Below, in pieces: positions 3,061 through 20,169 of a stretch of DNA of 64,000 nt. Source of the DNA: Nitrospinales bacterium (GTDB lineage: Bacteria; Nitrospinota; Nitrospinia; Nitrospinales; VA-1). The notes beneath the pieces are model-generated. The model did not search any database and was not told where the DNA came from. It saw only the letters and a program-made list of their open reading frames with translations. Numbering within the stretch: the first letter of the stretch is position 1; each line of letters begins with the position of its first letter. A program made the position numbers and the translations under genes. The stretch covers positions 1 through 64,000 of the forward strand of contig JBLFWU010000003.1 in assembly GCA_047610985.1 (NCBI GenBank), read 5' to 3'.

Positions 3061-3810
3061 ATGGATACTCTACTGACTATTTTTGTAGTACTAGGCTTGG
3101 TGTTATTCAGCACATTTCGGGTATTGAGGGAATATGAACGAGGAGTTATTTTTCTTCTTGGAAGGTTCTGGAAAGTAAAAGGCCCCGGCGTTATAATTGT
3201 TTTCCCCGGAATACAGAAAATGGTCAAGGTCAGTTTGCGAACTGTGGTAATGGATGTGCCTCCACAAGACATCATCACTAAAGACAACGTAACTGTGAAG
3301 GTCAATGCGGTAATCTATTTTCGTGTCGTGGACTCGCAAAAGGCGATCATTGAGGTCGAAGATTTTCTTTACGCAACTTCTCAGCTTTCACAAACTACAC
3401 TGCGAAGCGTATTAGGACAAAGCACCCTTGACGACTTACTATCCAACCGCGAAGAGATCAACGCTCACCTGCAAAAAGTTATTGATGAACAAACCGGACC
3501 CTGGGGTGTCAAGGTCGCAAACGTAGAAGTTAAAAACGTTGACCTACCACAGGAAATGCAAAGAGCATTAGCAAAACAGGCGGAAGCAGAACGCGAGCGA
3601 CGCGCAAAAGTTATCAATGCTCAGGGAGAATTCGAAGCAGCTCAGAAAACCTGCGATGCGGCAGACTTGATTGGTAGCCACCCACCGGCTTTGCAACTAC
3701 GTTTTTTTCAGACTTTGTTGGATCTCTCTAATAATGAGGGGAACCATACTTTTGTCCCTATCCCTATCGAGCTATTCGAATCATTCCGAAATAAGGGGAA
3801 TAAACCCTGA
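3061..3810 (+). CDS. SPFH/band-7 (stomatin/slipin-like) membrane protein
   Basis: N-terminal TM helix followed by the SPFH domain signature (…[14 protein letters not shown]…[29 protein letters not shown]…) and a C-terminal EAERE/RRAK coiled coil. Confidence 0.85.
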
Positions 3811-3863
3811 CACAGTTTTATTATTTTTAGCCCTATCGAAATAATATTTTCTCCCGTATTTTT

Positions 3864-6800
3864 ATGGAAGCTTATTCCAAAATAAACCAGTTTCTGATTC
3901 GTGTTCAGAAAAGCTGCAATCGAATTCGGCTCATATTGGGAGCATATTTGTTTTCCACTTCCCTTCTGGGAATTCTCTTGTGCGTGGCACTGTTTTATTA
4001 CCTACAACCTTCGGCAATCAGCTATTACGCATCCATCCTACTTTTTTTAATTATAGGGAAGTATGTCTACTCCACGGCGCGTTCAAGTTCATTAAATAAA
4101 ATCGATCGAGAGGGTGCAGCGCTACTTACTGAAAAGAAATACCCCGAACTAAACAATTCCCTCATAAATTCCGCGCAATTGGGTGAGCTTGTTTCCGACC
4201 CTGCCAAAGAAAAAATTTTCTCTTCAGCTTTTATTTGCGAATTATTGGCCCGGACTCAAAACCATCTAACTAAACTAAATGCCAACTCGGTTATTGAAAA
4301 AAACAGGACAACACGTTCAAGAAATTTATTTCTAAGCACCCTGGCACTTGGCTTGGTTGCCACCTTTATCGTTCCTGACTTCTGGCAACAAGCACTAAAA
4401 AACAGCTACGCTTCAATTAATCCTCTGCAAACAATAGCGGCAGAAAAAAATATTTCAAGACCCGAATTGGCAGAACCGGTTTACAGTATCGATGAACTAG
4501 CGCTGACATTAAACTATCCCGCGTACACACGCTTATCAGCGAAAAAGATTAATCCCTCTAATGGTTCCGTAAAAGCATTACCTGGAACAGAAGTTCTCAT
4601 TAAAGGTAAAATCAATCAAGCTGTTCAAACTGCCAGTTTAGTCGTTAATGAGAAAGACTCTTTTCTCATGGAATCAAAAAAAGACTCCTCTCTATCCGGG
4701 TCTTTTATGATCCGCGAAAAAGGCTTCTACCAATTCAGAGTTAAAGGGCTTTCAGGAAGCCGTATCGTGTTGCCGCAAAGATTCCCTATAGAGCTTGAAA
4801 AAGATCAAAAGCCCCGCATCCTTTTATTTCCTGCCAATCCAAAGCCGGTATACTTTGACACCGATAAAATCCAGATATTCTATGAAGGAAGCGATGATTT
4901 TGGCATCCGAAGTATAGAACTAGTCGCGCAGATCGAAGACAGTGCAATTCGAAAAAATATCAAAAGCCTAAAAAACGGAGAAAAAGCATCCCAGGGTAGG
5001 TTTACCTGGAACCTAGCTTTGGAATCATTAAAGCCGGGACAAGAGATTCAATATTATCTAGAAATTAAGGATAATGATAATGTTTCCGGCCCTAACATAA
5101 ACCAGTCCGAAATGATTAGCTTCACCATTTTCGACACACGTAAGGAGCAGGAAAACCTAGTTCGGCTTCAAGATGAATTGACAGAAAAAATGATCGCCCT
5201 GTTAGCAACCGGATTGGTAGAAGACAACATTCTAAAGAAAACCACCAAGGATGCTCTTTACGGGAAAAAACTACTCGCCTCGAATGCCGATGCTCTGATT
5301 GACATTATTGGCCTCGCGCAACATATAAAAATCCAGGCAGAAGAACTTGGCAGTTTCCCACAAGCCTACCTGACATTATTAAACAATATTATTTCGGGAT
5401 TAAATACAATCCGTCAGGAGAAAATTGACGCGATCGACAAAATTCAAGGAACAATAATGAAACCCACCCCGGTGGACTACAACTTATTCTCCATCGAAGT
5501 TTTAAATGATCGCATGGTCACTCACTTAGAACGCGATATTCTTTACCTGATAAAAATCACCAATCGCCAGAAGATGGATAGGGTAATGGACCTGGAAAAT
5601 CAGCTGTCAGAACTAACCGAGGCCCTGCAAGAAGAATTTAAAAACCTGAAAAATAAAAAGTCCCCCTTAGACGCCAACAAACTCAAATCCAAGCTCGACC
5701 AGATAGAGAAAACGTTAAAACAACTCATGAAAAAGTTGGAGCAGCAAAACCAATCGATGCCCGATGAATTCCTGAATTCCAAATCCTACAAAAACATGAA
5801 CTTGGAAAAAATGATGGCGTCGATTGAAAAAATTCAAGACCTGGCGAATCAAGGAAAAATGGATGAAGCCATGGAGCAACTTAAAAAAATGGCTGAGGAG
5901 TTAAGAAAATTTGCAGAACAATTAGATCAAGCTGAATCTTCCATGGAAGAAATGGTCGATACAGAAATGATGGAACAGCTCAACGAGTCCACGCTTGAAT
6001 TGAAAGATATGGAAAAGAAACAACGCGAGATCATAAAAAAAACCTCGAAAATAAACCAGGAACTACGACAGAAGCAGTCCAAAAAATTTGAGTCGCTGGT
6101 TAAAAAGTTTTTTGAAGAAATTAAAAAAGATGTGGATTCCATTCGCGCCATTCTTGATAACGATAAAAACTACCTCAATGAGCATTCAGCCATGAAAAAG
6201 CTGAGCAAACTCCTTGAAAAAGAGTCAATTCTAAACCAAGAAATACAATCGCTGGGACAAGAGACCATAGACTCCAGCCTTAAAGAGAGCCTTGCAACAA
6301 ACTTTGCTCAATTGAAGGACCGCCAACGACAACTTTCTAGCACATTATCTGAAATGAGTTCTCTCCGAGCAATGGGACTTCAGGAATTCAAAGAGAAACT
6401 TCCGGAGCTACAAAAAAAATACGATTCATTGAAAGAGCTTGCCGAGTTAAGTGAGTTGAACGAATTCAATTTACTTTTCAAGAACACCTATCCAGAAATA
6501 TTCCGCTGGCAGGGCAACATGCAAGCTTCACGAAACGAAGATATTGGCGGCAAAATAAGAGATGACTTGAAGCAGGTGAATCGATTGAATGGAGAGATAT
6601 CCAAGAAGCTGGGCTCATTAAAACGTTCGATCGAAACCAGCAACGATTCGCTCCTTCCCAAAGAAGCGAAGAGCCAGTTAAAGAAAATGGCACAGCAGGA
6701 AAAATCTATGCAAGGAAAAGCCGAAGGAATGCAAAAACAGTTTTCTGAGATGAACCAGAGGAATCCTTTACTCCCACCCTCCCTCGCGCAAAACATGCAG

Positions 6801-7178
6801 ATGGCAGGGAAAAACCTGCAACGTGCTGAGTCTCGCTTACAGGGAAGTCAGGTACAAAGAAGCATTGAGTCTGAAAACAAGGCCCTGAAACAAATTCAAG
6901 AAGCACAGAGTATGTTAAGCGAAATGAAAAAGTCTGGATCGCAAATGTCCCAACAGGGCAAGCAACAAAATCAGCTTCAACTCGGAACGGGAAGTCGCAG
7001 AGACTCAAGGCCTGGAGGTGCTATGCGAATGCAAAAGGAAAAAGTTCTCTTGCCTTCGGACGATCAATACAAAGTACCCAGCGAGTTCCGCGAAGACATT
7101 CTCGATGCTATGAAAAAACAAACACCGAAGAACTACGAACAACTGGTCAACGAATATTATAGAGAACTCGTACAATGA
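3864..7178 (+). CDS. Large membrane-anchored coiled-coil protein (1104 aa), function unknown
   Basis: Two N-terminal hydrophobic helices, then roughly 800 aa of highly charged E/K/Q-rich heptad-like sequence. No Walker A motif, no MotA-like 4-TM bundle and no vWA MIDAS motif. Stop overlaps the start of the next gene (ATGA). Confidence 0.6.
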   Translation: MEAYSKINQFLIRVQKSCNRIRLILGAYLFSTSLLGILLCVALFYYLQPSAISYYASILLFLIIGKYVYSTARSSSLNKIDREGAALLTEKKYPELNNSLINSAQLGELVSDPAKEKIFSSAFICELLARTQNHLTKLNANSVIEKNRTTRSRNLFLSTLALGLVATFIVPDFWQQALKNSYASINPLQTIAAEKNISRPELAEPVYSIDELALTLNYPAYTRLSAKKINPSNGSVKALPGTEVLIKGKINQAVQTASLVVNEKDSFLMESKKDSSLSGSFMIREKGFYQFRVKGLSGSRIVLPQRFPIELEKDQKPRILLFPANPKPVYFDTDKIQIFYEGSDDFGIRSIELVAQIEDSAIRKNIKSLKNGEKASQGRFTWNLALESLKPGQEIQYYLEIKDNDNVSGPNINQSEMISFTIFDTRKEQENLVRLQDELTEKMIALLATGLVEDNILKKTTKDALYGKKLLASNADALIDIIGLAQHIKIQAEELGSFPQAYLTLLNNIISGLNTIRQEKIDAIDKIQGTIMKPTPVDYNLFSIEVLNDRMVTHLERDILYLIKITNRQKMDRVMDLENQLSELTEALQEEFKNLKNKKSPLDANKLKSKLDQIEKTLKQLMKKLEQQNQSMPDEFLNSKSYKNMNLEKMMASIEKIQDLANQGKMDEAMEQLKKMAEELRKFAEQLDQAESSMEEMVDTEMMEQLNESTLELKDMEKKQREIIKKTSKINQELRQKQSKKFESLVKKFFEEIKKDVDSIRAILDNDKNYLNEHSAMKKLSKLLEKESILNQEIQSLGQETIDSSLKESLATNFAQLKDRQRQLSSTLSEMSSLRAMGLQEFKEKLPELQKKYDSLKELAELSELNEFNLLFKNTYPEIFRWQGNMQASRNEDIGGKIRDDLKQVNRLNGEISKKLGSLKRSIETSNDSLLPKEAKSQLKKMAQQEKSMQGKAEGMQKQFSEMNQRNPLLPPSLAQNMQMAGKNLQRAESRLQGSQVQRSIESENKALKQIQEAQSMLSEMKKSGSQMSQQGKQQNQLQLGTGSRRDSRPGGAMRMQKEKVLLPSDDQYKVPSEFREDILDAMKKQTPKNYEQLVNEYYRELVQ

Positions 7179-8728
7179 CAAAAGAAATAAAAATATTCTT
7201 TTCGCTCGGGGTATTCTTTCTGTATCTTTCTGGCACCACATCTGCTGCGCCTACATTCACGGACAAAATGCTCAAGGGCTATGAGCTCGCTCAGGACTGG
7301 GATTTGATTGCCGCCCAAAAACTTTCCCATTCCCTGCTCAAGAAGCACCCCGAATCCGGTGATGCGCATTTTCTCAGCGCCCGAATTGAATTTTTAAAAG
7401 GAAACTACGAGCGTGCATGGGAAGTTTTAGAAAGAGTCGGCGATTCCTACGAAGAAGTTACCGAGTTCAAGAAGCGAGTCGAGGCTACCCGAAAGGCCAC
7501 CAAAAATTTCGTTACCCGAGAAACTGCGCATTTCCGCTTTCGCTATGAAGAAGGTCCTGACGAGGTTCTTCTAATTTATGCAGAAGAGGTTCTGGAAAAA
7601 TCTTACCAGGTGCTAGGAAAAATTCTCGATCATTATCCTCAAGAAAAAGTTCTCATCGAGATTTATCCCGATCGGCAACCCTTTTCCAAAATTTCCCCAC
7701 TGACCTTACAAGACATTCTCACATCCGGAACAGTAGCGCTGTGTAAATACAATCGCATTATGATGATTTCGCCAGGGTCACTGGTTCGTGGATTCAACTG
7801 GATGGATACCCTGAGCCACGAATACGTTCATTACCTCCTGACAAAGAAGAGCCGTAATCGGTTACCCCTTTGGATGCATGAGGGAATAGCAAAATTTCTT
7901 GAAACAAGATGGCGTGACGACTCAAAGTACTTGTCTCCCATTATGGAAACCATTCTTTCCGGCGCACTCAAAAATGATTACAGAATCGCATTGGAAGATA
8001 TGATGCCGTCCCTTGCGAAACTAAAAACCGCCAAAGACGTGCAACTTGCTTATGCAGAAGTGTCGACGATGATGGAATTTCTCGCAGAGTCAAAGGGCAT
8101 GGATATTTTTACTCAGCTTCTTGATGATTTGGCCAAAGACATACGCTTTGAAGACAGTTTTAAAAACAGGACCAGACTCGACATTCTTTCGTTTCAGAAT
8201 AACTGGGAATTATGGGCTAAAAAGAAGGAGCTAAAGTTCATCCCGGGCATTACTGCTTTGAACAAAGAGTTCAAAAATAAAAACAAACCAGAAAAAAAAT
8301 TTAAAGGACTGGGCACCCGGCGAGCGCAAGACCTGACTTTTTTAGGTGATATCTTAAAGTCTCGCGATCATTACAACGCAGCCATCCTTGAATACCAAAA
8401 GGCAAAAGAAGAGTCTTCTACTCATTCACCCATATTGTTTAACAAACTAGCTGGCACTTATATTCAAACACGGAAATATGATGAAGCAGAGTTGCTTTTA
8501 AAAGAAAGCCTGGAGTATTATTCTGACTTTCACACCACACTCGCTAATCTTGGCGAGCTTTATTTTGTTAGCGAAAGGTTTGACAAAGCGCAAAAATATC
8601 TTGAGAAAGCGGTTCGCATCAACCCATTCAATCCTTTCATCCATACCCGATTGATAGAGTTATACGATCGCATGTCAAAGACTGAAGAAAAAAAATTACA
8701 AACCCAGTTGTTCAGCTTAATAGATTGA
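7175..8728 (+). CDS. Secreted/periplasmic HExxH (peptidase-MA-like) domain protein with C-terminal TPR repeats
   Basis: Signal peptide. HEYVH…PLWMHEGIAKF resembles the HExxH…E zinc-binding arrangement of the Peptidase_MA_2 family. C-terminal TPR-like repeats (…AILEYQKAKEE…, …ANLGELYFVSERFDKAQKYLEKAVRINP…). Confidence 0.65.
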   Translation: MTKEIKIFFSLGVFFLYLSGTTSAAPTFTDKMLKGYELAQDWDLIAAQKLSHSLLKKHPESGDAHFLSARIEFLKGNYERAWEVLERVGDSYEEVTEFKKRVEATRKATKNFVTRETAHFRFRYEEGPDEVLLIYAEEVLEKSYQVLGKILDHYPQEKVLIEIYPDRQPFSKISPLTLQDILTSGTVALCKYNRIMMISPGSLVRGFNWMDTLSHEYVHYLLTKKSRNRLPLWMHEGIAKFLETRWRDDSKYLSPIMETILSGALKNDYRIALEDMMPSLAKLKTAKDVQLAYAEVSTMMEFLAESKGMDIFTQLLDDLAKDIRFEDSFKNRTRLDILSFQNNWELWAKKKELKFIPGITALNKEFKNKNKPEKKFKGLGTRRAQDLTFLGDILKSRDHYNAAILEYQKAKEESSTHSPILFNKLAGTYIQTRKYDEAELLLKESLEYYSDFHTTLANLGELYFVSERFDKAQKYLEKAVRINPFNPFIHTRLIELYDRMSKTEEKKLQTQLFSLID

Positions 8729-8738
8729 GGTTCTCTGA

Positions 8739-9725
8739 ATGGAAGATTTAGAACTGGCCCAGGAACTGCTAAAGGCCAAAAAAAATGTAGTCGATGAGAT
8801 ACAGAAAGTCATCATAGGCCAAGATGAGGTAATCGAAGACCTTCTCGTTGCGCTTTTTTCTAAAGGCCACTGCCTTTTCGTGGGTGTGCCTGGATTAGCG
8901 AAAACCCTTTTAGTCAGCACCCTTGCGCAGGTATTGAACCTCGGGTTCAGCCGAATTCAGTTTACCCCCGACCTCATGCCGTCAGACATAACGGGAACAG
9001 ATATCCTGCATGAAGATACTGCATCTGGAAAGAGAGTGTTCCAGTTCATCAAGGGTCCTATTTTCTCAAATATAATTTTAGCGGATGAGATCAATCGAAC
9101 GCCGCCAAAAACCCAGGCGGCTCTGTTACAAGCAATGCAGGAAAAACAAGTTACCGTAGGGGGAAACACTTATCCGCTTGCCCCACCCTTTCTGGTTTTT
9201 GCAACGCAAAACCCCATTGAACATGAAGGCACCTATCCTCTACCAGAAGCGCAGCTCGACCGGTTCATGTTTATGATTAACGTGACCTATCCCAGTAAAG
9301 AGGAAGAAATCAAGATCGCACTTTCCACCACTTCAGGTCAGTTGCCAGAGTTACAACCTATCCTGAATTCCGAACAAGTTTTAAAATTTCAAGATCTGGT
9401 TCCACGAGTCCCTGTTTCCGACCACGTTGCCCGCTATGCAGTGGAACTTGCGCAAAATACCCGGCCACAGCAAAATGGAAACGTACTGGATTTTGTTAAG
9501 GAATGGATTGATTGGGGGGCAGGACCGAGAGCGTCTCAATATCTTATCTTGGGAGCCAAGGCAAAAGCGCTGTTGGACAACCGCGTCGCGGCGACAATCG
9601 AGGACGTCAAAGCCGTTTCCCGCCAGGTCCTGGAACATCGGATTATATTAAACTTCAAAGCTGAAGCAGAGAATATAAAAGTCACCGATGTCATAGAAAA
9701 ACTTCTAACTGAGGTTAAACCTTAA
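8739..9725 (+). CDS. MoxR-family AAA+ ATPase
   Basis: Walker A (GVPGLAKT), Walker B (ILADEINR) and sensor regions in the arrangement typical of MoxR/AAA_3. Length 328 aa. Confidence 0.9.
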   Translation: MEDLELAQELLKAKKNVVDEIQKVIIGQDEVIEDLLVALFSKGHCLFVGVPGLAKTLLVSTLAQVLNLGFSRIQFTPDLMPSDITGTDILHEDTASGKRVFQFIKGPIFSNIILADEINRTPPKTQAALLQAMQEKQVTVGGNTYPLAPPFLVFATQNPIEHEGTYPLPEAQLDRFMFMINVTYPSKEEEIKIALSTTSGQLPELQPILNSEQVLKFQDLVPRVPVSDHVARYAVELAQNTRPQQNGNVLDFVKEWIDWGAGPRASQYLILGAKAKALLDNRVAATIEDVKAVSRQVLEHRIILNFKAEAENIKVTDVIEKLLTEVKP

Positions 9726-9732: not shown

Positions 9733-10176
9733 CTACAACAAGTTCATGTTCTTGTTTTTGCCCCCCCTTTCCCAAAGAGGATCGGGGTGATTTACATCTA
9801 TTCTTTTTTCAATAAAAGCTTCGAGCTTTTCCATAACGCCTTCGATATTTTTATTCACCTCGGGATTAGTGAAGCGTAATACCGTAAATCCTTTCGACTT
9901 CAAAAAAGCTGTTCTCTTTTTATCGGATACTTTCTCCTGGGTTTCACCGTGGCTGTCCCCATCAATCTCTATCACCAGGCTCAACTGGTGGCAGTAGAAA
10001 TTAACAATATAGGGTTCAATGGGTTTTTATCGGTTGAATGTCAGTGATTTATAAAATGACATTCTTCTTAAGGCATTCCAGAATATTTTTTCAGCAGGGG
10101 TGGGGTTGTTTCGAAGGGTTCTTGCCTTTTCTTTAATGGATACATCATAAGATAATGAGTTACCTTTTGATTTCAT
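9733..10176 (-). pseudogene. DUF559 (endonuclease-domain, Vsr-like fold) gene interrupted by an in-frame TAA
   Basis: A single reading frame encodes MKSKGNSLSYDVSIKEKARTLRNNPTPAEKIFWNALRRMSFYKSLTFNR-*-KPIEPYIVNFYCHQLSLVIEIDGDSHG…. The stop lies at plus-strand 10027-10029, where family members usually have Gln (CAA to TAA). Both halves otherwise match the DUF559 consensus. Confidence 0.7.
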
Positions 10177-10262: not shown

Positions 10263-10646
10263 TCACTTATTCTTATATAAATCCCCAACGCGAAAACCAT
10301 CACGGTCTTCCTTATCAATACTCATCTGGCGAGTATCTTCTTCATCGAGTTTGCCTAACGCTTCGGAAACTTCTATCTGATAGTTTTTAACTTTCTGATA
10401 CAGGGGATGTTTGATATCTAACTTCAGATTGGTGAGAGCAGCGGTGAATTCGCCGGTGCCATCGGGAGTCAGTTTACATACCAGCTCACCGGAATTATCA
10501 TCGCGGTAAATATCCGTTACTTCCAATGGCGTTTTATTTTTGACATGAAATCCCATTTCACGCAACAGTGTCAACACCGCTCCGCGTCCATAAACACGAA
10601 GTGGCAAACATTTTAACAATTCATCCATCAAAGATTGCGCACTCAA
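10263..10646 (-). CDS. Hypothetical protein (127 aa)
   Basis: ORF with a plausible start. No recognisable motif. Confidence 0.4.
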   Translation of the reverse strand: MSAQSLMDELLKCLPLRVYGRGAVLTLLREMGFHVKNKTPLEVTDIYRDDNSGELVCKLTPDGTGEFTAALTNLKLDIKHPLYQKVKNYQIEVSEALGKLDEEDTRQMSIDKEDRDGFRVGDLYKNK

Positions 10647-10962: not shown

Positions 10963-11739
10963 GTGCCCGTGAATAAATATTTTCCTGCGATCAATCTGTT
11001 TTTTGTCCTCACCATCGCTGTCCTTGCTACATTGTCGGTCAAAATCTGGACACACCCCACTTATCCATCCAGAGTAGATGGAGCATCTGTGGTGGGATCG
11101 CCAAAAACCCTGAAGAACTTGGCCGTTAGCCGAGTTGGATACAATGCTGGAACGGTATCTCAGGTAGTTAAAGGAAATATTTTTCGCAAGCAAAGAAGAG
11201 AATATATTCCCCCTCCTGCTGTTTTAGCCCGATCCGTTGTAGCGCCTGTTGCCAGAAAACCTGCTTTACCACCACCGACCCTGATTTTGAAAGGGGTTCT
11301 GATGCTAGGCGGCACAAAAATTGCTATCCTTGAGGGTAAATACTGGGTTTTTCAAGGAAACCAGAAGACACAAAAGAAAGTTAAGAAAAAGGGCTATTCC
11401 TTGGGACAGATTGTAGGAGATTTTGAGTTGATCGAAATAGATAAAAACAGTGTCACCCTCGATGATAAAAAAGGGCGTGTGGTTCAGTTACGTTTGGCTA
11501 AACGTTCTCCCGAAAAGATCATTCATAGAGAGGGAACTACTTTTTTCCAAAAAAACAAAAAGTATGACCCGAGAAGATTCAAAGCCACTCCTGTTAAGAA
11601 TCGCCCTACAAGAACCACTACATCAAAAAGAAAAACCAAGCCCACTGCAAGTGCACCTGCCCCGGCTCCAGCCCCTGTGTTCAGGATCTCAGGAGCAAGA
11701 ACACCTGCGCCTGCAGCCGTTCATATTTCAGGAAGATAA
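10963..11739 (+). CDS. GspC/PilP-like secretin-interacting protein (N-terminal TM anchor, Pro-rich linker, HR/PilP-like beta domain)
   Basis: GTG start. TM helix (LFFVLTIAVLATLSV). Segment LILKGVLMLGGTKIAILEGKYWVFQGNQ…GQIVGDFELIEIDKNSVTL…GRVVQLRL follows the PilP/GspC-HR pattern. No PDZ domain. Position is immediately upstream of gspE. Confidence 0.5.
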   Translation: MPVNKYFPAINLFFVLTIAVLATLSVKIWTHPTYPSRVDGASVVGSPKTLKNLAVSRVGYNAGTVSQVVKGNIFRKQRREYIPPPAVLARSVVAPVARKPALPPPTLILKGVLMLGGTKIAILEGKYWVFQGNQKTQKKVKKKGYSLGQIVGDFELIEIDKNSVTLDDKKGRVVQLRLAKRSPEKIIHREGTTFFQKNKKYDPRRFKATPVKNRPTRTTTSKRKTKPTASAPAPAPAPVFRISGARTPAPAAVHISGR

Positions 11740-11745
11740 ATTATC

Positions 11746-13455
11746 ATGTTGAAAAAAGTTGACCCAGTTGAGCGAATTTTACTTCGCCACAAAAAGATTT
11801 CGGAAAAGGTTTTGCAGGAAGTCAAATCCAACAACCTGCATTCCCATAATTTTCTAGGGAAAACTTTAGTTGACCATGGTTATATCCATACCCAAACGTT
11901 ACTGGAAACCCTAAGCGCCGAATTACGCTTACCGTATGTCAAAAAAGGTCAATTCCCAAAATCCGGTTTACCTGTCGAGGGCCTGTCAATATCCGATACT
12001 TTTTTAAGGGAAAAAGTTATCCTCCCATTACAACTCAAGGATGACACCTTGATCGTTGCAGTTTTCGACCCATTCGACCAATACACTATTGAAGATTTAA
12101 AAGTTTCTCTTGGGAAAAACATCCGCGTTGTCTTGAGTAGCGAGCAGGATATTTTGGAATCCATCGAAGCTCACTACGGTGAAGGAGGCAGTTCGGCCAT
12201 GGACCGCATGGTGGGCGACATCAATGATGATGATCTACATGGTTTAGATTCCCTTGATGAGAGCACGGAACATATTCGCGACATGGCTTCTGAGGCTCCG
12301 GTCATCAAACTGGTGAACCACATTATCAGCGAAGCTATTGAGTCACGTGCCAGTGATATCCATTTGGAACCTTTTGATGATGAGCTTGTTTTAAGGTACC
12401 GGATTGATGGAATTCTTCACGAGTTCGACCCGCCTCCCAAACGCCTGAGTGCTGCCATCACTACGCGCATAAAAATTATGGCGAAGATGGATATTTCTGA
12501 GCGTCGACTGCCCCAAGATGGCAGAATTAAACTAAAAATTCTGGGCAAAGATATCGATATGCGTGTTTCCACACTGCCGACTTTATATGGTGAAAGTGTG
12601 GTCATGAGAATACTCGACCGCGGAAGTCTGGTGCTGGACCTGAGTAAAATGGGGTTCCCCGAAAAAATACTCGAACAACTCGAAGAATTGATTCACAAAC
12701 CCTATGGCAAAGTACTGGTAACCGGCCCCACAGGTAGCGGAAAAACTACCACGCTGTATGCAGCCCTGAGCCAGATCAACACGCCCGAAAAAAAAATCAT
12801 CACCATAGAAGACCCCGTGGAATATCAAATGCGTGGGATCAACCAGATCCATGTAAAATCTAAGATCGGTCTCGACTTCGCTGGCGGATTACGATCCATA
12901 GTAAGGCAGGATCCAGATGTGATTATGGTCGGTGAGATTCGTGATCCCGAAACGGCTGACATTTCGATTCAGGCTGCTTTAACAGGACATCTGGTTTTTA
13001 GTACCGTTCACACCAATGATGCGGCAGGTGCCATCACGAGACTCCTCGACATGGGAATCGAAAATTTCCTAATTTCTTCGGCACTATTAGGTGTGCTCGC
13101 TCAAAGGTTGGTGCGCGTCATCTGTCCAGACTGCAAAGAAGAATCTTCATTAACCCCAATCCTTCGCACTGAAATGGGGCAAATAGGAAAAGAAGATATC
13201 AAAGTTTATCGCGGTAAAGGCTGTAAATCCTGCAGCAACACAGGATTTCGGGGAAGATGTGGAATTTATGAACTGCTGGTCGTTGATGATAATATTCGCG
13301 AGCTCGTATTAAAGAAATCAACCGCTCAGGCTATTTGTGATCAAGCGCGACAAACTGGCATGAGAACCTTACGAGAAGATGGTTGGGACAAAGTGATAGA
13401 AGGTATCACCACCGTTGAAGAAATTCTTCGCGTCACTTTGAGCGACCGGAACTAG
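11746..13455 (+). CDS. gspE: Type II secretion ATPase GspE
   Basis: GspE N-terminal domain. Walker A GPTGSGKTT. Asp and His boxes. Tetracysteine motif CPDC…CKSC. 569 aa. Confidence 0.92.
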   Translation: MLKKVDPVERILLRHKKISEKVLQEVKSNNLHSHNFLGKTLVDHGYIHTQTLLETLSAELRLPYVKKGQFPKSGLPVEGLSISDTFLREKVILPLQLKDDTLIVAVFDPFDQYTIEDLKVSLGKNIRVVLSSEQDILESIEAHYGEGGSSAMDRMVGDINDDDLHGLDSLDESTEHIRDMASEAPVIKLVNHIISEAIESRASDIHLEPFDDELVLRYRIDGILHEFDPPPKRLSAAITTRIKIMAKMDISERRLPQDGRIKLKILGKDIDMRVSTLPTLYGESVVMRILDRGSLVLDLSKMGFPEKILEQLEELIHKPYGKVLVTGPTGSGKTTTLYAALSQINTPEKKIITIEDPVEYQMRGINQIHVKSKIGLDFAGGLRSIVRQDPDVIMVGEIRDPETADISIQAALTGHLVFSTVHTNDAAGAITRLLDMGIENFLISSALLGVLAQRLVRVICPDCKEESSLTPILRTEMGQIGKEDIKVYRGKGCKSCSNTGFRGRCGIYELLVVDDNIRELVLKKSTAQAICDQARQTGMRTLREDGWDKVIEGITTVEEILRVTLSDRN

Positions 13456-13511
13456 ACGGAAAAATATCAGAGAACAAACGCAAAACCTAAAAAACCCGAC
13501 AAAGGCAAACC

Positions 13512-14738
13512 ATGACGGTTTACTCCTATAAAGCCACGGACAAGAATGGCGAATATGTAGAGGGCGATATCAGCGCGTCTGACTACAAAGGTGCGATACA
13601 ACAAATCCGCAAGCTGAATTATTTCCCGGTGAAAGTTTCTGAGGGTAAAGGTTTATCCAAACTTTCTTCTGGAATAGCTTTGTCAATGCCGAGTTGGGGT
13701 TCTCCTATCCCAGTAAAAGACCTCATGACCCTCACCCAGCAACTCGCGACACTGGTTGATTCTGGTTTGACACTGGATGATGGACTCGCCACCTTAATCA
13801 AACTTTCAGAGACAGAAAAAATACGCTCCGTACTTGCTGATGTCCGAAAGCAGGTGCATGCAGGCAGTTCTTTTGCCGATGCCTTGGCAGAACACCCGAA
13901 TGTTTTTTCCAAGCTGTACATCAATATGATCCGCGCAGGCGAAGCTGGAGGAATCTTGGGGGAGTCACTTGCAAGACTTGCCCTGTTCATGGAAAAGTCT
14001 GTCGAGTTGAAAAACAGTATTCGATCAGCGATGGTTTATCCCGCCATTCTGAGTTTGGTCGGTGGTACTGCGGTAATTATCCTCATCACTTTTGTGATAC
14101 CCCAATTTTCAAAGTTATTTGAAGAAATGGGTGCCGCTCTTCCTCTACCAACCCAAATCATGCTGGGATTGAGTTCTCTAATCATAAATTACTGGCCAGC
14201 ATTGATTTTGGGGATTGCGGGATTCGTTGCCGCATTTACCTTTTACATAAGGACAAATAATGGCCGGCTCAAATGGGATGGAATGCTTTTAAAACTTCCG
14301 CTTTTCGGCCCATTGATCCAAAAGATAGAGGTCTCCCGATTCAGCTTAACACTGGCAACCTTATTAAAAAGTGGCGTTCCCATCTTGCAAGCAATGGGAA
14401 TCGTGCAGTCTATTTTAATAAACCGGGTTGTTTCAGACTCCATAATAGTTATCCAGCAGGCCTTAAAAAAAGGCAACGGGCTTTCGGGTCCACTCCAAAA
14501 GGCGGGAGTTTTCCCTCCAATGGCGGTTCACATGATCACCGTTGGCGAAACTTCAGGATCCTTAGATGAAATGCTGACAAAAGTTTCTAACACTTACGAT
14601 AAAGAAGTAGAACAATCTATCAAGCAGGTGATTTCCTTGATCGAGCCAATGATGATCTTATTAATGGCTGTAATCATCGGCTTCATTGTTGTCTCCATGC
14701 TTCTGGCAATTTTCAGCGCCAACGATATCGCTTTTTAA
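13512..14738 (+). CDS. gspF: Type II secretion inner-membrane platform protein GspF
   Basis: 408 aa. Duplicated GspF/PilC domains. Three TM segments. Confidence 0.92.
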   Translation: MTVYSYKATDKNGEYVEGDISASDYKGAIQQIRKLNYFPVKVSEGKGLSKLSSGIALSMPSWGSPIPVKDLMTLTQQLATLVDSGLTLDDGLATLIKLSETEKIRSVLADVRKQVHAGSSFADALAEHPNVFSKLYINMIRAGEAGGILGESLARLALFMEKSVELKNSIRSAMVYPAILSLVGGTAVIILITFVIPQFSKLFEEMGAALPLPTQIMLGLSSLIINYWPALILGIAGFVAAFTFYIRTNNGRLKWDGMLLKLPLFGPLIQKIEVSRFSLTLATLLKSGVPILQAMGIVQSILINRVVSDSIIVIQQALKKGNGLSGPLQKAGVFPPMAVHMITVGETSGSLDEMLTKVSNTYDKEVEQSIKQVISLIEPMMILLMAVIIGFIVVSMLLAIFSANDIAF

Positions 14739-14760
14739 ACAAACTCTACGAAGGAAAATT

Positions 14761-15177
14761 ATGAAGGACAATTTGAAAAGATTTCATCACCTGGGACCAC
14801 AAGGTTTCACCCTAATTGAGCTCATGGTCGTTATGGTAATTATAGGACTGCTGGCAGCTACCGTGGTGCCCAAGTTCTTCGGACAAGTTGATAAGGCAAT
14901 GCAACAAGACGCGCAAGCGCAAATCGAACTTTTGGGGCAAGCCCTCGACCTATACCGTTTAGAAAAACATAAATACCCCACCAGCGATGAAGGGTTGGAA
15001 GCTATCAAATCCTATTTAAAAAAACATGTCCCGAAAGATCCCTGGGGCAATGCCTATATATATGAGTCCCCCGGCAAAGAAGGTCGTGGATACGATTTAA
15101 TTTCCCTGGGTGGAGATAATGCGGAAGGAGGAGAAGGAACTGACATAGATATTGTCAGTTGGAAAAATTTTGAATAA
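14761..15177 (+). CDS. gspG: Major pseudopilin GspG
   Basis: RBS aaggaaaa then ATG. Class III leader (…GPQG/FTLIELMVVMVIIGLLAA). Conserved GspG C-terminus (…KDPWGNAYIY…). Confidence 0.9.
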   Translation: MKDNLKRFHHLGPQGFTLIELMVVMVIIGLLAATVVPKFFGQVDKAMQQDAQAQIELLGQALDLYRLEKHKYPTSDEGLEAIKSYLKKHVPKDPWGNAYIYESPGKEGRGYDLISLGGDNAEGGEGTDIDIVSWKNFE

Positions 15178-15664
15178 ACAACGCGCCTTAGGTAAAGACG
15201 GTTTCACTTTATTAGAATTGATACTTGTTCTTTTCCTGATGGGACTGATGGCAGGAATTGTTTTACCGTTTGTGGTTTCAACTCTTGACCGCGTTAAACT
15301 GCAATCGGAAGCCCGACAAATTTCCTCTGCGTTGCAGTTTGCACGTAGCGAGGCCATCACAAAAAAAACTTTATTCACCTTCAATGCCAATATCGATAAA
15401 AATCAATACTGGCTCGCTATCCCAAAAGAAAAAGAAGTCACACAAACAAAAATTCTTGATGAAACAGTACGAATCAAGAACTATCAGGGAGCAGAGGAAA
15501 CCGTATCTGAGGGAACATTTATTATAAATTTTTATCCGCGCGGTAATTCGAGTGCCGGAACCATCCACCTGCAATCATCCATCGCCGAAAGCGATGCACT
15601 TGTTTATGCAATCACCATCGATCCCATTACAGGAAAACCCAGAATCAAGCTCCTTGAAGAATGA
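15152..15664 (+). CDS. Minor pseudopilin GspH-like
   Basis: Prepilin motif KDG/FTLLELILVLFLMGLMAG. The start may be the TTG at 15170, which would give a short leader. Overlaps the gspG stop. Confidence 0.7.
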   Translation: MSVGKILNKQRALGKDGFTLLELILVLFLMGLMAGIVLPFVVSTLDRVKLQSEARQISSALQFARSEAITKKTLFTFNANIDKNQYWLAIPKEKEVTQTKILDETVRIKNYQGAEETVSEGTFIINFYPRGNSSAGTIHLQSSIAESDALVYAITIDPITGKPRIKLLEE

Positions 15665-16232
15665 ACAGGGGTTCTCTCTCCTCGAAGTCGTTGTTGCTCT
15701 GATGATAATGGCTGGGGGATTCCTCGCTGTTCTCAACCTTTTTTCAGGAAGTGTGCGTTCTGTCGGTTTTTCAGGCCAATACCTCAAGGCTGTCACCCTG
15801 GCAAATTCAAAAATGAATGAACTGGAAATTCAAAACTTTATCGTAGAGGACAGTTCTGGGAATTTCAAAAACGAAGAAAATTATCACTGGGAAGTTAACA
15901 TCTCTCCCTACGATTCTGACTTGAACAACGAGAAATCGAGGATTCAATTACAGAAAATTTTATTGAAAGTTTTATGGAACGATGACGGACATACTCGCAA
16001 CATTGAACTAGCAACACTGCGCCTGGAAGGCCAAACCTACCCAGCAGCCGACACACGATTGGAACGGTTATTTTCAGGAGGAGCAGGCAGAACTAATACC
16101 GAGGGAGAAGAAGAGACAGCAGCTCCCGAAACTTCTACACCAAGCACAGGAACAGGAACAGGCGTAAATATCAGTGGTTCCGGTCAAACCAATATCAGCG
16201 GATCGGGGACGCAGAATATTTGCGGAAATTAA
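15654..16232 (+). CDS. Minor pseudopilin GspI-like with low-complexity G/S/T-rich tail
   Basis: TTG start. Prepilin motif EQG/FSLLEVVVALMIMAGG. C-terminal TGTGTGVNISGSGQTNISGSG repeat-like tail. Confidence 0.6.
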   Translation: MKNEQGFSLLEVVVALMIMAGGFLAVLNLFSGSVRSVGFSGQYLKAVTLANSKMNELEIQNFIVEDSSGNFKNEENYHWEVNISPYDSDLNNEKSRIQLQKILLKVLWNDDGHTRNIELATLRLEGQTYPAADTRLERLFSGGAGRTNTEGEEETAAPETSTPSTGTGTGVNISGSGQTNISGSGTQNICGN

Positions 16233-17101
16233 TGAGTCCAATAATAAATCGCATTTCAAAAAATCAATCTGGATTCACCCTGCTTGAGCTGATCTTGTCT
16301 CTAGCTATTGTTGGGATTATTATTGCACTGGGACTCGGCGGTATCCGCCTGGGGATTAGCGCACGCGATGTTGGGGAAAGGAAGGTCGACACCTATCAGC
16401 GTCTACGCATCATCACAGAACAACTCACGCAAAAACTACAATCTACTTATCCTGTTTTTGTTATTCAAAAAGACGGTAGCTCAATCGCACAAAGCCTGTC
16501 TTCTTCTAAAAGAATTATGGCATTTGAGGGAGAATCGAATTCTTTAAGGTTTGTTACTTTTGCATCACCCATAACAACGCAAGAATCCCGGATCCACGAA
16601 GTAAAATTTTATTTAGGCAAACACCCTGAAACTGAAAAATCGGGTCTTATTCTAATGGAGAAGGATATCTCGAAAGGTGATGTTTTCTCTCGGATAATCC
16701 CCAATGCCGAAACCACACGTTATTATTTACTCGCTGAAAATGTTACCGAATTGAAATTCAGATACTATGAAATGAAAAAACTTCCGCCCCAAGAACTGGA
16801 GGATTCTAGCAACAGCCCGACCCACAAAGGAAAATGGGTAAACAGAGTTGTTATGGACCCGTTTCTTATCAATCAAGAAGTGCCAACAAACCCTATTCTT
16901 GCTTTCGAAAAAAATAATAAAATTTCCTTACCGCGAGCAGTTGAAATAACTCTTGGTATTACCCCTAAGGTGAATGAAGAAAACAAGGATACCCAAGAAG
17001 AACCTGAATTGTTTTTTCCGCCACCAATTGTAGTTTTGATCAACTCTGGAATGGAAATTGCAGTTCCTGAGAAGAAGGAAGAAGACAATGAGAAAGCTTA
17101 A
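16232..17101 (+). CDS. Minor pseudopilin GspJ-like
   Basis: TAATG overlap with the previous gene. Prepilin motif QSG/FTLLELILSLAIVGIIIA. Confidence 0.6.
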   Translation: MSPIINRISKNQSGFTLLELILSLAIVGIIIALGLGGIRLGISARDVGERKVDTYQRLRIITEQLTQKLQSTYPVFVIQKDGSSIAQSLSSSKRIMAFEGESNSLRFVTFASPITTQESRIHEVKFYLGKHPETEKSGLILMEKDISKGDVFSRIIPNAETTRYYLLAENVTELKFRYYEMKKLPPQELEDSSNSPTHKGKWVNRVVMDPFLINQEVPTNPILAFEKNNKISLPRAVEITLGITPKVNEENKDTQEEPELFFPPPIVVLINSGMEIAVPEKKEEDNEKA

Positions 17102-18119
17102 AGACAATCAGAGAGGTATTGCCCTTATGGCTGTTCTATGGGTTCTGGTCTTATTAATAGCTTTAGCTACCGAATTTGCTTTTTCAATGAAAATGGAGGT
17201 CAACACTACCCGAAACTACAAAGAAGACACAGAAAGCTATTATTTATCCAGAGCAGGCCTCAATCTGGCTCTGGCAGAGCTTTTTAAAGAAGCCAAATTC
17301 CACTCTATACATGAGGAACATGGTTGGATTACCGGAAATATTATTCCAACTTCTGCCACAAACGAATCCACTCCTTCCCCTGGGCAGGAAAATTCGAATG
17401 CAGAGCAGACCTCTGGTCAAGAGGAATTAGAGAAGGGAGAAGCGGTTCAAGATTTTGACATCGTCAACAGAACCGACATTGAACTGGAAAATGGAAGCAT
17501 CACATATACTATTCGAGATGAAAATGGGAAAATTTCCATTAATTCTGCGAGTAAAAATACTTTGGACAAGCTTCTTCAGTATTCAGGGGTTGAAGACAAA
17601 ATCGAAAGAAGCACCATTTCAGATTCTATACTGGACTGGATTGACACCGATAAAAATCATCGACTCAATGGGGCCGAAGATGATTATTACCGGACACAAA
17701 ATCCACCCTATTACGCAAAAAATGGCCCAATAGAAACAATCGATGAACTTTTGAAGATACGCGGCATCACTGAAGAGATTCTTTATGGCCCTAAGGAAAA
17801 TAATGACGAAAATAAAAAAACAGGGATTGCGGACCATCTCACAGTTTATAAAATTTCCACAGTGAATCCCAATACGGCGAGCAAAGAAGTGTTAAATATT
17901 TTATTCCAATCGGAGCAGGCAAATAAAATTTTGGAGAATAGAAATACTAAAGGTTTCCACTCGAACACGCTATCGAACTTTTTCCACATTACTTCTATAG
18001 GAAAAATAACCGGCAGTCGTACAGAGCATACCGTGAAAACAATATTAGAAAAGAGAATCTCAGGTGGCAAAACACAAATGATAATTCATTACTGGAATGA
18101 CAACGTACTGAACTTATGA
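17088..18119 (+). CDS. gspK: Minor pseudopilin GspK
   Basis: Leader MRKLKDNQRG/IALMAVLWVLVLLIALATEFA, typical of GspK. About 344 aa. Tandem helix-hairpin-helix-like regions. Confidence 0.7.
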   Translation: MRKLKDNQRGIALMAVLWVLVLLIALATEFAFSMKMEVNTTRNYKEDTESYYLSRAGLNLALAELFKEAKFHSIHEEHGWITGNIIPTSATNESTPSPGQENSNAEQTSGQEELEKGEAVQDFDIVNRTDIELENGSITYTIRDENGKISINSASKNTLDKLLQYSGVEDKIERSTISDSILDWIDTDKNHRLNGAEDDYYRTQNPPYYAKNGPIETIDELLKIRGITEEILYGPKENNDENKKTGIADHLTVYKISTVNPNTASKEVLNILFQSEQANKILENRNTKGFHSNTLSNFFHITSIGKITGSRTEHTVKTILEKRISGGKTQMIIHYWNDNVLNL

Positions 18120-19594
18120 AATCTGTCTTTTTAGAAAAATCTTTAGGAATGGATATCCGTGAGGACTCCATCAACCTCACCCTTATAGGGAGAAAGCTGC
18201 GCCTTGCTGAAGTGCTCGCTGGTGAATTCATAGACTTGAAACTGCTGACAGGAAAGGACGAAAAAGCAGAGAAGCATTTCCTGGATCAGGTCAATCGGTT
18301 TCTGGTCGAACAAAACACTTGGCCCGAGTCAGTCATAGTCAGTCTGCCAAGAAGTTTCGTTATGTTTAAAACATTTGAACTCCCGGCACCAGACATGAAA
18401 GCTGTTCAAGCAATGGTAGAGTTTGAGTTGGAACGGCAATTTTCATCGGGCTTAGATGAATTGTACTATACCTACCAACTCAATCAAAAATCTGGGAATA
18501 TTTTCCACATCGCCTCTGCGGCAATTAAAAAAGAAACCGCCAACTATTACCTCGAGCTCATCAAAAAGTTAAACTTAAAAACTACCGTTCTCGACATCTC
18601 AACTTTCGCCAACAGCAATCTTGCTCTGCTACAAGAATCTAAGGATTCTGCTGTAACTGCATTGATCGACATCAGCCCACGCGCCCTGGAAATCGTTCTT
18701 ATTAAAAAAGGTGTTTTAGAGTTCTCTAGAAATAGAACATGGGATAATACAGACATAAAGGACACATACTCAGGGAAAGACAAATCCCCTAGCCAGCTCG
18801 ATAGCCTTTCCGAGTCCACCACCAAATTAATAATCAGCGAATTGGAGCAAGCACTTTCTTCATGCCGAAATATTGAAGAAAATGAATCAATTGAGCATAT
18901 TTTTATTTCGGGTGGCGGCACATTGGCACCCCGAGTCATCAAACAACTGGAAAAAGAAACGCAGGTATCGACACAATGTTTAAGCATTCCCGATTCAGTT
19001 TCCCCTACCCTGCCCGAGTCTTTTTCAACTTATCATATGATGACGGCTTTGAGTCTGGCCATAAGAGATTCCAGAAAGCAAAGTTTTGAAACCAATTTAC
19101 TACCCCCGAGCCTGCGGCCAAAAAGAAGAAAAGCAAACCCAAAAACGTCTCTAGTTCTGGCAGCTGTCTTGGTACTTTGCCTTGTAGGATGGATCGGTAG
19201 CCAAATACACCATAACAACAAAACCCTGGCATCTTTAAACGGTCAATTAGATGAGATAAAGGGCGAAGTTTCTAACTTGGAAAAGATTGATCTAGAATAT
19301 ATTTCAATCCAGCAGTATGTAGATATCCTCAACGCAATCAATAAACAGCACCCACCCAAGCTTCCGCTCTTGGGAAGGTTGAGCCTGTCACTCCCCAAAG
19401 ACACGTGGTTGACAAATATAAAATTCCACAAGGGTGAAATGGAAATAAAAGGCTTTTCGCCTTCGGCTTCAAAGCTGATTCCTCTCATCGAAAAATCACC
19501 TAGTTTTAAGAAAACAGGTTTTATCGGCACAATAATAAGAGAATCTACAGGTGAGAAGTTTACGATTCGTGCGAAATTGGAATCTAATTCATGA
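18116..19594 (+). CDS. GspL-like assembly protein (PilM-like cytoplasmic actin-fold domain, TM segment, PilN/GspL-like periplasmic domain)
   Basis: N-terminus LGMDIREDSINLTLIG resembles the PilM/GspL cyto-domain. Single TM (LVLAAVLVLCLVGWIG) around residue 345, followed by a periplasmic coiled-coil region. Confidence 0.6.
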   Translation: MKSVFLEKSLGMDIREDSINLTLIGRKLRLAEVLAGEFIDLKLLTGKDEKAEKHFLDQVNRFLVEQNTWPESVIVSLPRSFVMFKTFELPAPDMKAVQAMVEFELERQFSSGLDELYYTYQLNQKSGNIFHIASAAIKKETANYYLELIKKLNLKTTVLDISTFANSNLALLQESKDSAVTALIDISPRALEIVLIKKGVLEFSRNRTWDNTDIKDTYSGKDKSPSQLDSLSESTTKLIISELEQALSSCRNIEENESIEHIFISGGGTLAPRVIKQLEKETQVSTQCLSIPDSVSPTLPESFSTYHMMTALSLAIRDSRKQSFETNLLPPSLRPKRRKANPKTSLVLAAVLVLCLVGWIGSQIHHNNKTLASLNGQLDEIKGEVSNLEKIDLEYISIQQYVDILNAINKQHPPKLPLLGRLSLSLPKDTWLTNIKFHKGEMEIKGFSPSASKLIPLIEKSPSFKKTGFIGTIIRESTGEKFTIRAKLESNS

Positions 19595-20169
19595 CCTTAA
19601 ACATTGGAAAAAGAGATAAGACTTTTCTTATTGGTGGTGGAGCTTTTGTAGCCTGCTATCTACTTTTCTTTTTAGTGGCGGAACCCATTTATAAAAAACA
19701 GATAAGCATTGACGAAAAGATAAAGGACAAAATAAACTTCATTGAAAAATACTATGAAGTCCTGAATCAGACTTCCTACTATCAGGCAAAGGACACAGCA
19801 AATAAGAATACTAAAACAACTCTGCAAAAACGCTTTTTCAGCGATAAAGAACCGGGGCTTGCCGCAGCAGGATTGCAAAAATTATTACAAGGATTCTCAA
19901 GAGGTGCTGTAACCATTGAAAAAACCCGAGTTGAAAAACCAAAATATGTCGCAAGAATACTCGCGGTTCCTGTTGAAATCACAGTTCGTTCCAGCCTGAA
20001 GAATCTCGCTCTATTTTTAATGCGGATTGAAAACCATGAAAAATTTTTAGTCATTGAAGAACTTCGATCACGAAGAATAAACAAAAAGGAACCAGAAGAC
20101 CTTCAAACACGCCTATTGATCACAGGCTTTATAAAGGAACTGGAACCAAAAAGCGGAAAACCAATATGA
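19591..20169 (+). CDS. GspM/PilO-like bitopic membrane protein
   Basis: N-terminal TM (FLIGGGAFVACYLLFFLV) followed by a periplasmic domain. Position between the L-like gene and the secretin gene. Confidence 0.5.
   Translation: MTLNIGKRDKTFLIGGGAFVACYLLFFLVAEPIYKKQISIDEKIKDKINFIEKYYEVLNQTSYYQAKDTANKNTKTTLQKRFFSDKEPGLAAAGLQKLLQGFSRGAVTIEKTRVEKPKYVARILAVPVEITVRSSLKNLALFLMRIENHEKFLVIEELRSRRINKKEPEDLQTRLLITGFIKELEPKSGKPI

Follow-up and report, generated by a model that had tools for sequence, protein, structure and literature searches.

The Bat/Cmd operons, i.e., batI of Bacteroides fragilis, the bat genes of Leptospira and Borrelia, and cmdA-D of Rhizobium leguminosarum, encode an MRP-type ("MoxR proper") MoxR AAA+ ATPase together with membrane-anchored partners that have large periplasmic parts and a TPR-containing partner. 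Their roles are reported as envelope-related (summary in PMC5700661; PMC5118466): mutants of cmdA-D (RL3499-RL3502, encoding MoxR, DUF58 and partners) have envelope and morphology defects according to the summary given in PMC5700661, and are impaired in growth on complex medium (PMC5118466). Here, we analyzed a 64,000-nt stretch of DNA from a Nitrospinales bacterium (positions 1 to 64,000 of contig JBLFWU010000003.1, assembly GCA_047610985.1; hereafter, the window), in which three adjoining genes encode a giant membrane protein of the DUF4175 family (the giant), a secreted zinc peptidase with TPRs (the peptidase) and an MRP-type MoxR. We observe that this trio has the features of the Bat/Cmd operons listed above, and that in other phyla it adjoins their core genes, DUF58 and BatA_N+vWA. 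The locus in the window is a reduced or split member of the Bat/Cmd-type MoxR operons.

The locus differs from the described Bat/Cmd operons in gene content. It contains neither DUF58 nor vWA, so that only the MoxR of the MoxR-DUF58-BatA set is present in the 64 kb, and the DUF4175 giant and the HExxH peptidase are not among the described Bat/Cmd components. TPRs, which in Bat/Cmd operons belong to a BatC/BatE-like protein, are present here but fused to the peptidase. A Pfam scan, the only search made for it, found no BatD match in the giant.

The DUF4175/TIGR02302 proteins of Alphaproteobacteria start with two to three transmembrane (TM) helices, after which comes a long helical stretch of low complexity, rich in Q and G, with a predicted location outside the membrane, and the layout of the giant agrees with this description. 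This family, too, has ties to MoxR-type operons and to an envelope regulon: the CenR envelope/division regulon of Rhodobacter sphaeroides includes a TIGR02302/DUF4175 gene and a MoxR gene (PMC9275681). The giant differs in that it does not match TIGR02302, an alphaproteobacterial equivalog model, at E ≤ 0.01 (NCBIfam), in that its Pfam match is confined to residues 576-841, and in its downstream peptidase, which is a feature of the subfamily sampled here. Membership of DUF4175 is uninformative on function, since the family is uncharacterized.

The RavA-ViaA, NorQ-NorD and CbbQ-CbbO pairs have the MoxR AAA+ core in common with the trio, and make dedicated remodeling of one partner complex a plausible working model (PMC13036017, PMC9976466, PMC3893208), but they belong to other MoxR subfamilies and mature cytoplasmic or membrane enzymes via a vWA adaptor, whereas in the window no vWA gene is linked and the candidate client would be mostly periplasmic. 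BepA, an M48 peptidase, is like the peptidase of the trio a secreted HExxH zinc peptidase fused to TPRs. In BepA, it is the TPR domain that brings the protease to a machine for envelope assembly. The two differ in catalytic family (M48 versus the Peptidase_MA_2 gluzincins), the match of our peptidase to the NCBIfam model of BepA (E = 8.5e-4) covers the TPR region only and falls far below the cut-off, and we have no evidence that would connect the trio to the β-barrel assembly machinery or lipopolysaccharide (LPS).

A conserved giant-peptidase-MoxR trio

The trio makes up the last three of four open reading frames (ORFs) on the + strand of the window:

3864-7178, + strand: giant, 1104-aa DUF4175-family membrane protein (PF13779 match; Nitrospinota orthologs)
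7175-8728, + strand: peptidase, 517-aa secreted Peptidase_MA_2 (gluzincin)/TPR protein (Pfam; signal peptide)
8739-9725, + strand: MoxR, 328-aa AAA+ ATPase of the MRP type (Pfam; PDB 2r44)

Reading the sequence at the gene boundaries showed that the giant and the peptidase overlap by an ATGA (7175-7178), and that the peptidase and MoxR are separated by a 10-nt spacer (8729-8738). An initial annotation, made from the sequence alone, had described these three genes as tightly coupled to each other and to the fourth gene, which encodes an SPFH protein; its coordinates, the ATGA overlap and the 10-nt spacer are correct, and Pfam bears out its domain assignments for all four genes, but the SPFH gene lies 53 nt from the giant and is not near-overlapping.

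We then compared this locus with five further Nitrospinota loci (L003, L004, L086, L087 and L088), in which the giant is as little as 47% identical to that of the window. The giant, peptidase and MoxR genes are uninterrupted and in the same order in all six contexts, and the giant/peptidase overlap, of 4 or 1 nt, is also present in L003, L086 and L087.

The trio is not restricted to Nitrospinota. A genome scan seeded with the C-terminal motif of the giant and a DND..SGPK motif identified 513 confirmed relatives, of which we kept the best 79 loci, i.e., loci that resemble one non-Nitrospinota subfamily and carry the two motifs. By record title, these 79 loci come from Brocadiales and other Planctomycetota, Myxococcota, "Deltaproteobacteria", Thermodesulfobacteriota/Desulfobacterota, Entotheonella, Elusimicrobia, Spirochaetia, Dadabacteria and metagenome-assembled genomes (MAGs) labeled Clostridia, and the trio recurs in at least eight phyla. 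Using tblastn, we found that the giant is followed by a peptidase ortholog (29-43% identity) in 28 of 31 Brocadiales loci and in 25 of 26 other loci with enough sequence; the two genes are adjacent in 53 of the 57 informative loci from other phyla (~90%), which is more than chance would produce. The giant-peptidase pair is the evolutionary core of the module. A MoxR ortholog, 59-66% identical to that of the window, follows directly after the peptidase in 18 of 24 non-Brocadiales loci. One record, a 1832-nt contig labeled Candidatus Hydrothermarchaeales archaeon, is 85% identical (best tblastn segment) to the C-terminal part of a Brocadiales-type giant (query residues 969-1130), and its presence in an archaeal MAG is most likely due to a binning contaminant.

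Examination of the genes beyond MoxR places the trio among the Bat/Cmd operons. DUF58 accompanies MoxR in 14 of 17 informative non-Brocadiales loci, where MoxR is followed by a ~300-aa gene, usually by a ~710-aa gene, and in some loci by ~260-290-aa and 760-aa genes. For example, Pfam identifies the genes after MoxR in the Entotheonella locus (L080) as DUF58+VWA_2, BatA_N+VWA_2, DUF4159 and GATase1_like. The MoxR, DUF58 and BatA_N/vWA set follows the trio in L050, L059, L066, L070, L071, L074, L076 and L080-L083; in L055, L058 and L065 it comes before the trio, while the MAGs labeled Clostridia have a permuted order (MoxR-DUF58-BatA-DUF4159-GATase1_like-giant-x-peptidase). In addition, shorter relatives of the N-terminal module of the giant (P0393 and P0397) close MoxR-DUF58-BatA operons in L084 and L085. 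The contiguity of the orthologous trio with DUF58 and BatA_N+vWA elsewhere makes the trio a branch within the Bat/Cmd operons of MRP-type MoxR. The locus had been described as unlike any named operon, a view that no longer holds, as the trio runs into Bat/Cmd core genes in Myxococcota, Entotheonella and other lineages.

MoxR without linked DUF58 or vWA genes

The MoxR of the window matches AAA_3 (E = 6.9e-62) and AAA_lid_2 (E = 6.5e-15) in Pfam, and matches PDB 2r44 over residues 15-326 with E = 3.1e-86, which makes it MRP-type. Its nucleotide-binding motifs are present in the sequence:

8883-8906, + strand: MoxR Walker A, GVPGLAKT
9081-9092, + strand: MoxR Walker B, ADEI
9201-9215, + strand: MoxR sensor-1, ATQNP

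No DUF58 or vWA gene adjoins this MoxR: Pfam analysis of 40 of the larger ORFs of the window detected none, and tblastn of the whole 64 kb with DUF58, BatA-vWA, DUF4159 and GATase1-like seeds gave no hits either. The initial annotation had noted the missing vWA partner, and its observation extends from the locus to all of the window. The terms DUF58, VWA, MoxR, BatA and DUF4175 do not appear in the supplements of two comparative-genomics papers on Nitrospinota.

Four loci outside Nitrospinota (L049, L068, L072 and L073) have the same trio-only layout, and in a neighbor-joining (NJ) tree that carries no support values their MoxRs group with those of Nitrospinota, apart from the DUF58-linked MoxRs. 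These four loci also have common flanks, identified by eye: upstream, genes resembling GTP cyclohydrolase I and two copies of QueD, and downstream, a gene on the opposite strand resembling NuoM, which suggests that the MAGs are interrelated despite their Deltaproteobacteria, Spirochaetia and Thermodesulfobacteriota labels.

One explanation of the trio-only loci is that Nitrospinota and their trio-only relatives have lost DUF58 and vWA altogether, with MoxR docking directly on the cytoplasmic domain of the giant and ATP-driven remodeling being passed across the membrane to the scaffold and peptidase in the periplasm. The negative searches of the window and of the flanks in five other Nitrospinota genomes, the four further trio-only loci, the single NJ clade formed by their MoxRs, which suggests a stable inherited architecture, and the strong conservation of the cytoplasmic loop of the giant all point in this direction. 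We nevertheless consider such a vWA-independent machine unlikely, as the MoxR still shares 59-66% identity with MoxRs whose genes precede DUF58 and BatA, and the tree on which the clade is seen lacks support values. To our knowledge, every MoxR studied so far works with a vWA partner. Indeed, this partnership is stated as a rule (PMC13036017, PMC9976466). A more specific version, in which MoxR in Nitrospinota and a few related lineages acts on the DUF4175 loop without adaptors, as an ATP-controlled switch of a periplasmic TPR-metallopeptidase, we regard as less likely still; if true, the adaptor-free trio would be the first example of a MoxR system that works independently of vWA, and would give DUF4175 its first assigned role.

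The peptidase is very probably an active periplasmic gluzincin

The peptidase matches Peptidase_MA_2 (PF13485; E = 7e-10, 39.5 bits against a cut-off of 32.4) and, in addition, several TPR families in Pfam. Its N-terminus (MTKEIKIFFSLGVFFLYLSGTTSA, followed by AP) reads as a Sec-type signal, and the protein is laid out as a signal peptide (aa 1-24), an N-terminal TPR-like region (aa 29-100), a catalytic region (~110-350) and C-terminal TPRs (380-517). Alignment of orthologs located the putative zinc site:

7817-7882, + strand: H215-E216-x-x-H219 and E236 (WxHEGxA motif) of the peptidase

H215, E216, H219 and E236 are kept without exception by the orthologs that we aligned from several phyla (50 of 50), and likewise in a further alignment, and because of this invariance the peptidase is very probably active in the periplasm, as judged from sequence. 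The catalytic region of aminopeptidase N gave a weak alignment to the peptidase, and a profile search of the PDB was dominated by TPR matches, which are uninformative on the catalytic domain. In L088 (11324-12884) the peptidase is called as two pieces of 309 and 139 aa, reflecting a frameshift or pseudogene, or an error of long-read assembly.

Architecture of the giant

The giant matches DUF4175 (PF13779) with E = 7.1e-9 and 34.7 bits against a cut-off of 27.3, and many of its orthologs carry a precomputed PF13779 match. DUF4175 had been one of the families suggested for this protein in the initial annotation, which had also raised the prospect of a known, characterized family; the family is indeed known, but it is uncharacterized. 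Orthologs in Nitrospinota are 100 to 46% identical, the one at 100% being recorded from a Nitrospinales MAG. A hidden Markov model (HMM) of residues 1-440 matched 7082 cluster representatives at E ≤ 1e-3, of which 2867 remain at the stricter E ≤ 1e-10, and among the 150 matches listed the relatives are mostly 1000-1200 aa long; a profile of distant N-terminal domains gave 11 matches, mostly fragments. The name that some public sources give the giant, "DNA repair exonuclease SbcCD ATPase subunit", is a mis-annotation that stems from its coiled-coil-like composition, and its matches to SMC and Rad50 (20 and 17 bits against cut-offs of at least 700) are coiled-coil artefacts. The "DUF4175" label given to Acinetobacter baumannii AdvA (PMC7481262) is one that we treat as unverified and probably weak.

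We modeled residues 1-440 and the full-length protein with AlphaFold 2 (AF2; confidence, pLDDT, 78 and 77, respectively), and assigned topology from hydropathy and lysine/arginine (K/R) bias in 13 family members. Together, these give the following predicted layout:

3930-4079, + strand: TM1 (aa 23-46) and TM2 (aa 52-72), a hairpin (AF2 helices 2-47 and 52-73; hydrophobicity kept in the family)
4086-4301, + strand: cytoplasmic helical domain between TM2 and TM3, aa 75-146 (AF2 helices 82-92, 99-111, 113-117 and 121-135; side by K/R bias)
4317-4388, + strand: TM3, aa 152-175 (AF2 helix 147-169; hydrophobic at ~150-175 in 13 of 13 family members checked)
4488-5132, + strand: two tandem Ig-like β-sandwiches, aa 209-311 and 318-423 (AF2; predicted periplasmic)
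5136-6962, + strand: L/K/E/Q-rich α-helical region of ~600 aa, aa 425-1033 (AF2, ~17 helices)
7038-7175, + strand: conserved C-terminal motif, aa 1059-1104, VLLPSDDQYKVPSEFREDILDAMK...YEQLVNEYYRELVQ (conservation 0.87-0.91, the highest block of the protein; low pLDDT)

Three hydrophobic segments (~23-46, 52-72 and 152-175) replace the two N-terminal TM helices of the initial annotation, and K/R bias places the N-terminus in the cytoplasm. The domain between TM2 and TM3 is the best-conserved stretch of the membrane module, with mean conservation of up to 0.80 over residues 81-100, with A86, E90, L96 and Q105 invariant in 52 Nitrospinota sequences, and with a LAxxIExxxPxLxxxLISxVQL motif that is retained in distant phyla. 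In the model, this domain is the sole sizeable surface of the giant that would be open to a cytoplasmic MoxR.

Beyond TM3, a disordered linker (aa 184-204 in the AF2 model) leads to the two Ig-like domains, and Ig, FN3 and macroglobulin domains are the only fold matches of the giant. The helical region, for which structure comparison gave no specific match, had been labeled a coiled coil; it is modeled instead as ~17 separate helices of 20-75 residues with short breaks, arranged in bundles and not as one continuous coil, with pLDDT of 80-95 over aa 700-1020 of the full-length model. A Q/G-rich disordered linker (aa ~1026-1070) precedes the C-terminal tail, where the motif V.IP....YKVPKEFR.EIL.AMK...P..Y..L..DYY..L is retained in distant phyla. 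From this topology we infer that ~920 residues of the giant (~85%) would be periplasmic. Short homologs of the giant (558-599 aa) are without the helical region and the C-terminal motif, and in the one context examined (L084) the peptidase is missing too, which fits a link between tail and peptidase.

A proposed mechanism and the evidence against it

The explanation that we favor, with a probability of roughly 0.55, is that the trio is a Bat/Cmd-type machine in which a scaffold, a peptidase and a remodeling MoxR act together on the cell envelope. The giant, with its N-terminus and small conserved helical domain in the cytoplasm, would project its Ig-like domains, helical bundles, Q/G-rich linker and tail into the periplasm, and would serve there as a scaffold that holds or positions the TPR-peptidase, a role suggested by the tight translational coupling and near-obligate co-occurrence of the two genes. 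The TPRs of the peptidase possibly bind the conserved C-terminal tail of the giant. MoxR would remodel or gate the assembly from the cytoplasm via the TM2-TM3 loop, with or without the help of DUF58/vWA adaptors whose genes would lie elsewhere, and the output would be proteolytic maintenance or remodeling of cell-envelope proteins, which fits the envelope and morphology phenotypes of the related MoxR-DUF58-BatA operons.

Several points weigh against this explanation. None of DUF58, vWA, DUF4159 and GATase1-like genes was found within 8-10 kb of the giant, on either side, in the five other Nitrospinota genomes. In Brocadiales, none of 26 loci has MoxR within 10 kb of the giant-peptidase pair, and because these bacteria keep the pair, it may work without MoxR. 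The co-occurrence figures given above hold for the subfamily sampled by our scan and not for all DUF4175 proteins, and every mechanistic step proposed for the trio is one that we infer. Finally, the phenotypes of Bat-type operons are inconsistent: they concern aerotolerance in B. fragilis, and in spirochaetes a specific Bat function is reported as undemonstrated (PMC3557215).

The B. fragilis phenotype raises a different reading, in which the module guards periplasmic proteins against oxygen stress or repairs them, in analogy to Bat, as might suit a microaerophilic nitrite oxidizer. The trio is homologous to Bat-type operons via MoxR and, in other phyla, via DUF58 and BatA_N; reduced aerotolerance is the trait that defined the Bat operon (Tang 1999, as cited in PMC5700661); and in the window the opposite strand just upstream of the locus carries genes for MsrA (PMSR), a rotamase and a cytochrome c peroxidase. 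Outside some Nitrospinota, however, the MsrA and peroxidase genes are unlinked to the trio, and the strictly anaerobic anammox Brocadiales retain the giant-peptidase pair. With these points and the spirochaete results against it, we consider an oxidative-stress role improbable.

It had also been suggested that the locus is an NTP-dependent conflict system, i.e., an anti-phage system built around MoxR. This MoxR does have a secondary Pfam match to bpMoxR (E = 1.6e-10), and one weak, sub-significant PADLOC match, to DolB (E = 1e-4). Its AAA_3 match is far stronger than that to bpMoxR, the other three proteins have no PADLOC matches, and no PADLOC system was called. MoxR-vWA-β-propeller conflict systems (Kaur et al. 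2020, PMC7159879) would be expected to have linked vWA, propeller and effector domains, and Pfam found none of these in the locus. In addition, the locus has a stable housekeeping synteny across Nitrospinota, the module occurs in many phyla, and the GC content is even and unremarkable across the region, unlike that of defense islands. We therefore regard a conflict function as very improbable, and return to the Bat/Cmd-type machine as the preferred explanation.

The upstream SPFH gene

Immediately upstream of the giant lies the fourth gene of the initial annotation:

3061-3810, + strand: 249-aa SPFH/Band_7 (stomatin-like) protein with an N-terminal membrane anchor (Pfam Band_7, E = 9e-38)

SPFH proteins partner membrane proteases, e.g., in the HflK/C-FtsH and stomatin-NfeD pairs, and the SPFH gene here likewise adjoins a protease-containing cluster. 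By analogy with HflK/C-FtsH, all four proteins might form one membrane microdomain/protease complex, as the SPFH gene is co-directional with the giant, lies 53 nt upstream, and keeps this upstream position in each of the six Nitrospinota contexts. We consider this reading unlikely. A tblastn search of the 79 loci outside Nitrospinota gave no SPFH homolog, SPFH is also absent from L084 and L085, and unrelated genes separate SPFH from the giant in two of the six Nitrospinota contexts, namely an oppositely oriented RND efflux cluster of 6.6 kb in L004 and three small genes in L086. The wider region is also syntenic in Nitrospinota (MetRS, TatD/radical-SAM and DUF423, then SPFH and the trio, then RNase-H-like, FliD/FliS and succinyl-CoA ligase genes), so that adjacency, which may be mere gene order, lends little weight to a functional link. 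A cytoplasmic location is predicted for the SPFH domain, in contrast to the periplasmic peptidase, and, in difference to HflK/C-FtsH and stomatin-NfeD, a FtsH or NfeD partner is absent here (no NfeD match among the proteins of the locus in Pfam or NCBIfam).

SPFH is thus a Nitrospinota-specific upstream neighbor, outside the conserved module. The initial annotation had treated the four genes as one unit and made its conservation in related genomes the point to check; the trio is conserved, but the quartet is not. Divergent from SPFH, the window encodes a secreted protein of 277 aa (2087-2920, - strand) that has a TM anchor at its C-terminus and no Pfam or NCBIfam match. Genes of 271-289 aa without Pfam matches lie at the same place in L003, L004, L086 and L088 (matched by size and position only), and this protein may be the true partner of SPFH.

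Other features of the window

The position directly 3′ of MoxR is a site that gathers small insertions. In the window, it holds an 83-aa ORF (9733-9984, - strand), whose counterpart in L002 (2156-2398) has a DUF559 match, and a 127-aa protein to which no family was assigned (10263-10646, - strand); in L086, a ParE toxin pair is present at the same site (14046-14575). The recurrence of small insertions here marks the 3′ end of the operon. Our scan for promoters and terminators gave the same counts as shuffled sequence and is uninformative on operon limits, and tRNA and Rfam scans of the window gave no matches.

Some 1.2 kb downstream of MoxR, the window contains a complete type II secretion/type IV pilus-like cluster (10963-22613, + strand), with genes for GspC-like (weak match), GspE (T2SSE), GspF (T2SSF), N-methyl pseudopilin, GspK, fused PilM-PilN and secretin proteins, which is unlinked to the trio in other Nitrospinota. 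Further along (51826-55834 and 56071-59126, both - strand) are ATP-citrate-lyase-like genes (CoA_binding/Succ_CoA_lig and Citrate_bind/ATP-grasp_2) and a citrate-lyase-like aldolase, which presumably would suit the reductive tricarboxylic acid cycle of Nitrospinota. They adjoin an unusual 752-aa fusion of an ATP-grasp ligase and an FMN-dependent dehydrogenase.

Significance

The protein families of the trio and the operon family to which it belongs are already known, and the operon family is functionally unexplained; no function is established for this combination. Two observations appear to be undescribed in the searchable literature, where we found no treatment of the Peptidase_MA_2/PF13779 pairing: the near-obligate pairing of a long-form DUF4175 protein with a secreted TPR-gluzincin across many phyla, and a stable trio-only branch without linked vWA genes.

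The Bat/Cmd MRP-MoxR operons belong to the most widespread of the bacterial gene clusters for which a mechanism is still lacking, and DUF4175 alone comprises thousands of 50%-identity clusters. A large DUF4175 subfamily is almost always found with a secreted TPR-peptidase whose zinc site is intact, and which in turn is linked to MoxR, with or without DUF58/vWA. This pairing gives the MoxR operons a concrete candidate output, i.e., periplasmic proteolysis on a scaffold, and the trio provides a minimal, three-gene version for study. Our analysis gives no sign of a new biochemical principle, nor of a machine of a new kind. An envelope-maintenance module would be of ecological interest in Nitrospinota, the main nitrite oxidizers of the sea.

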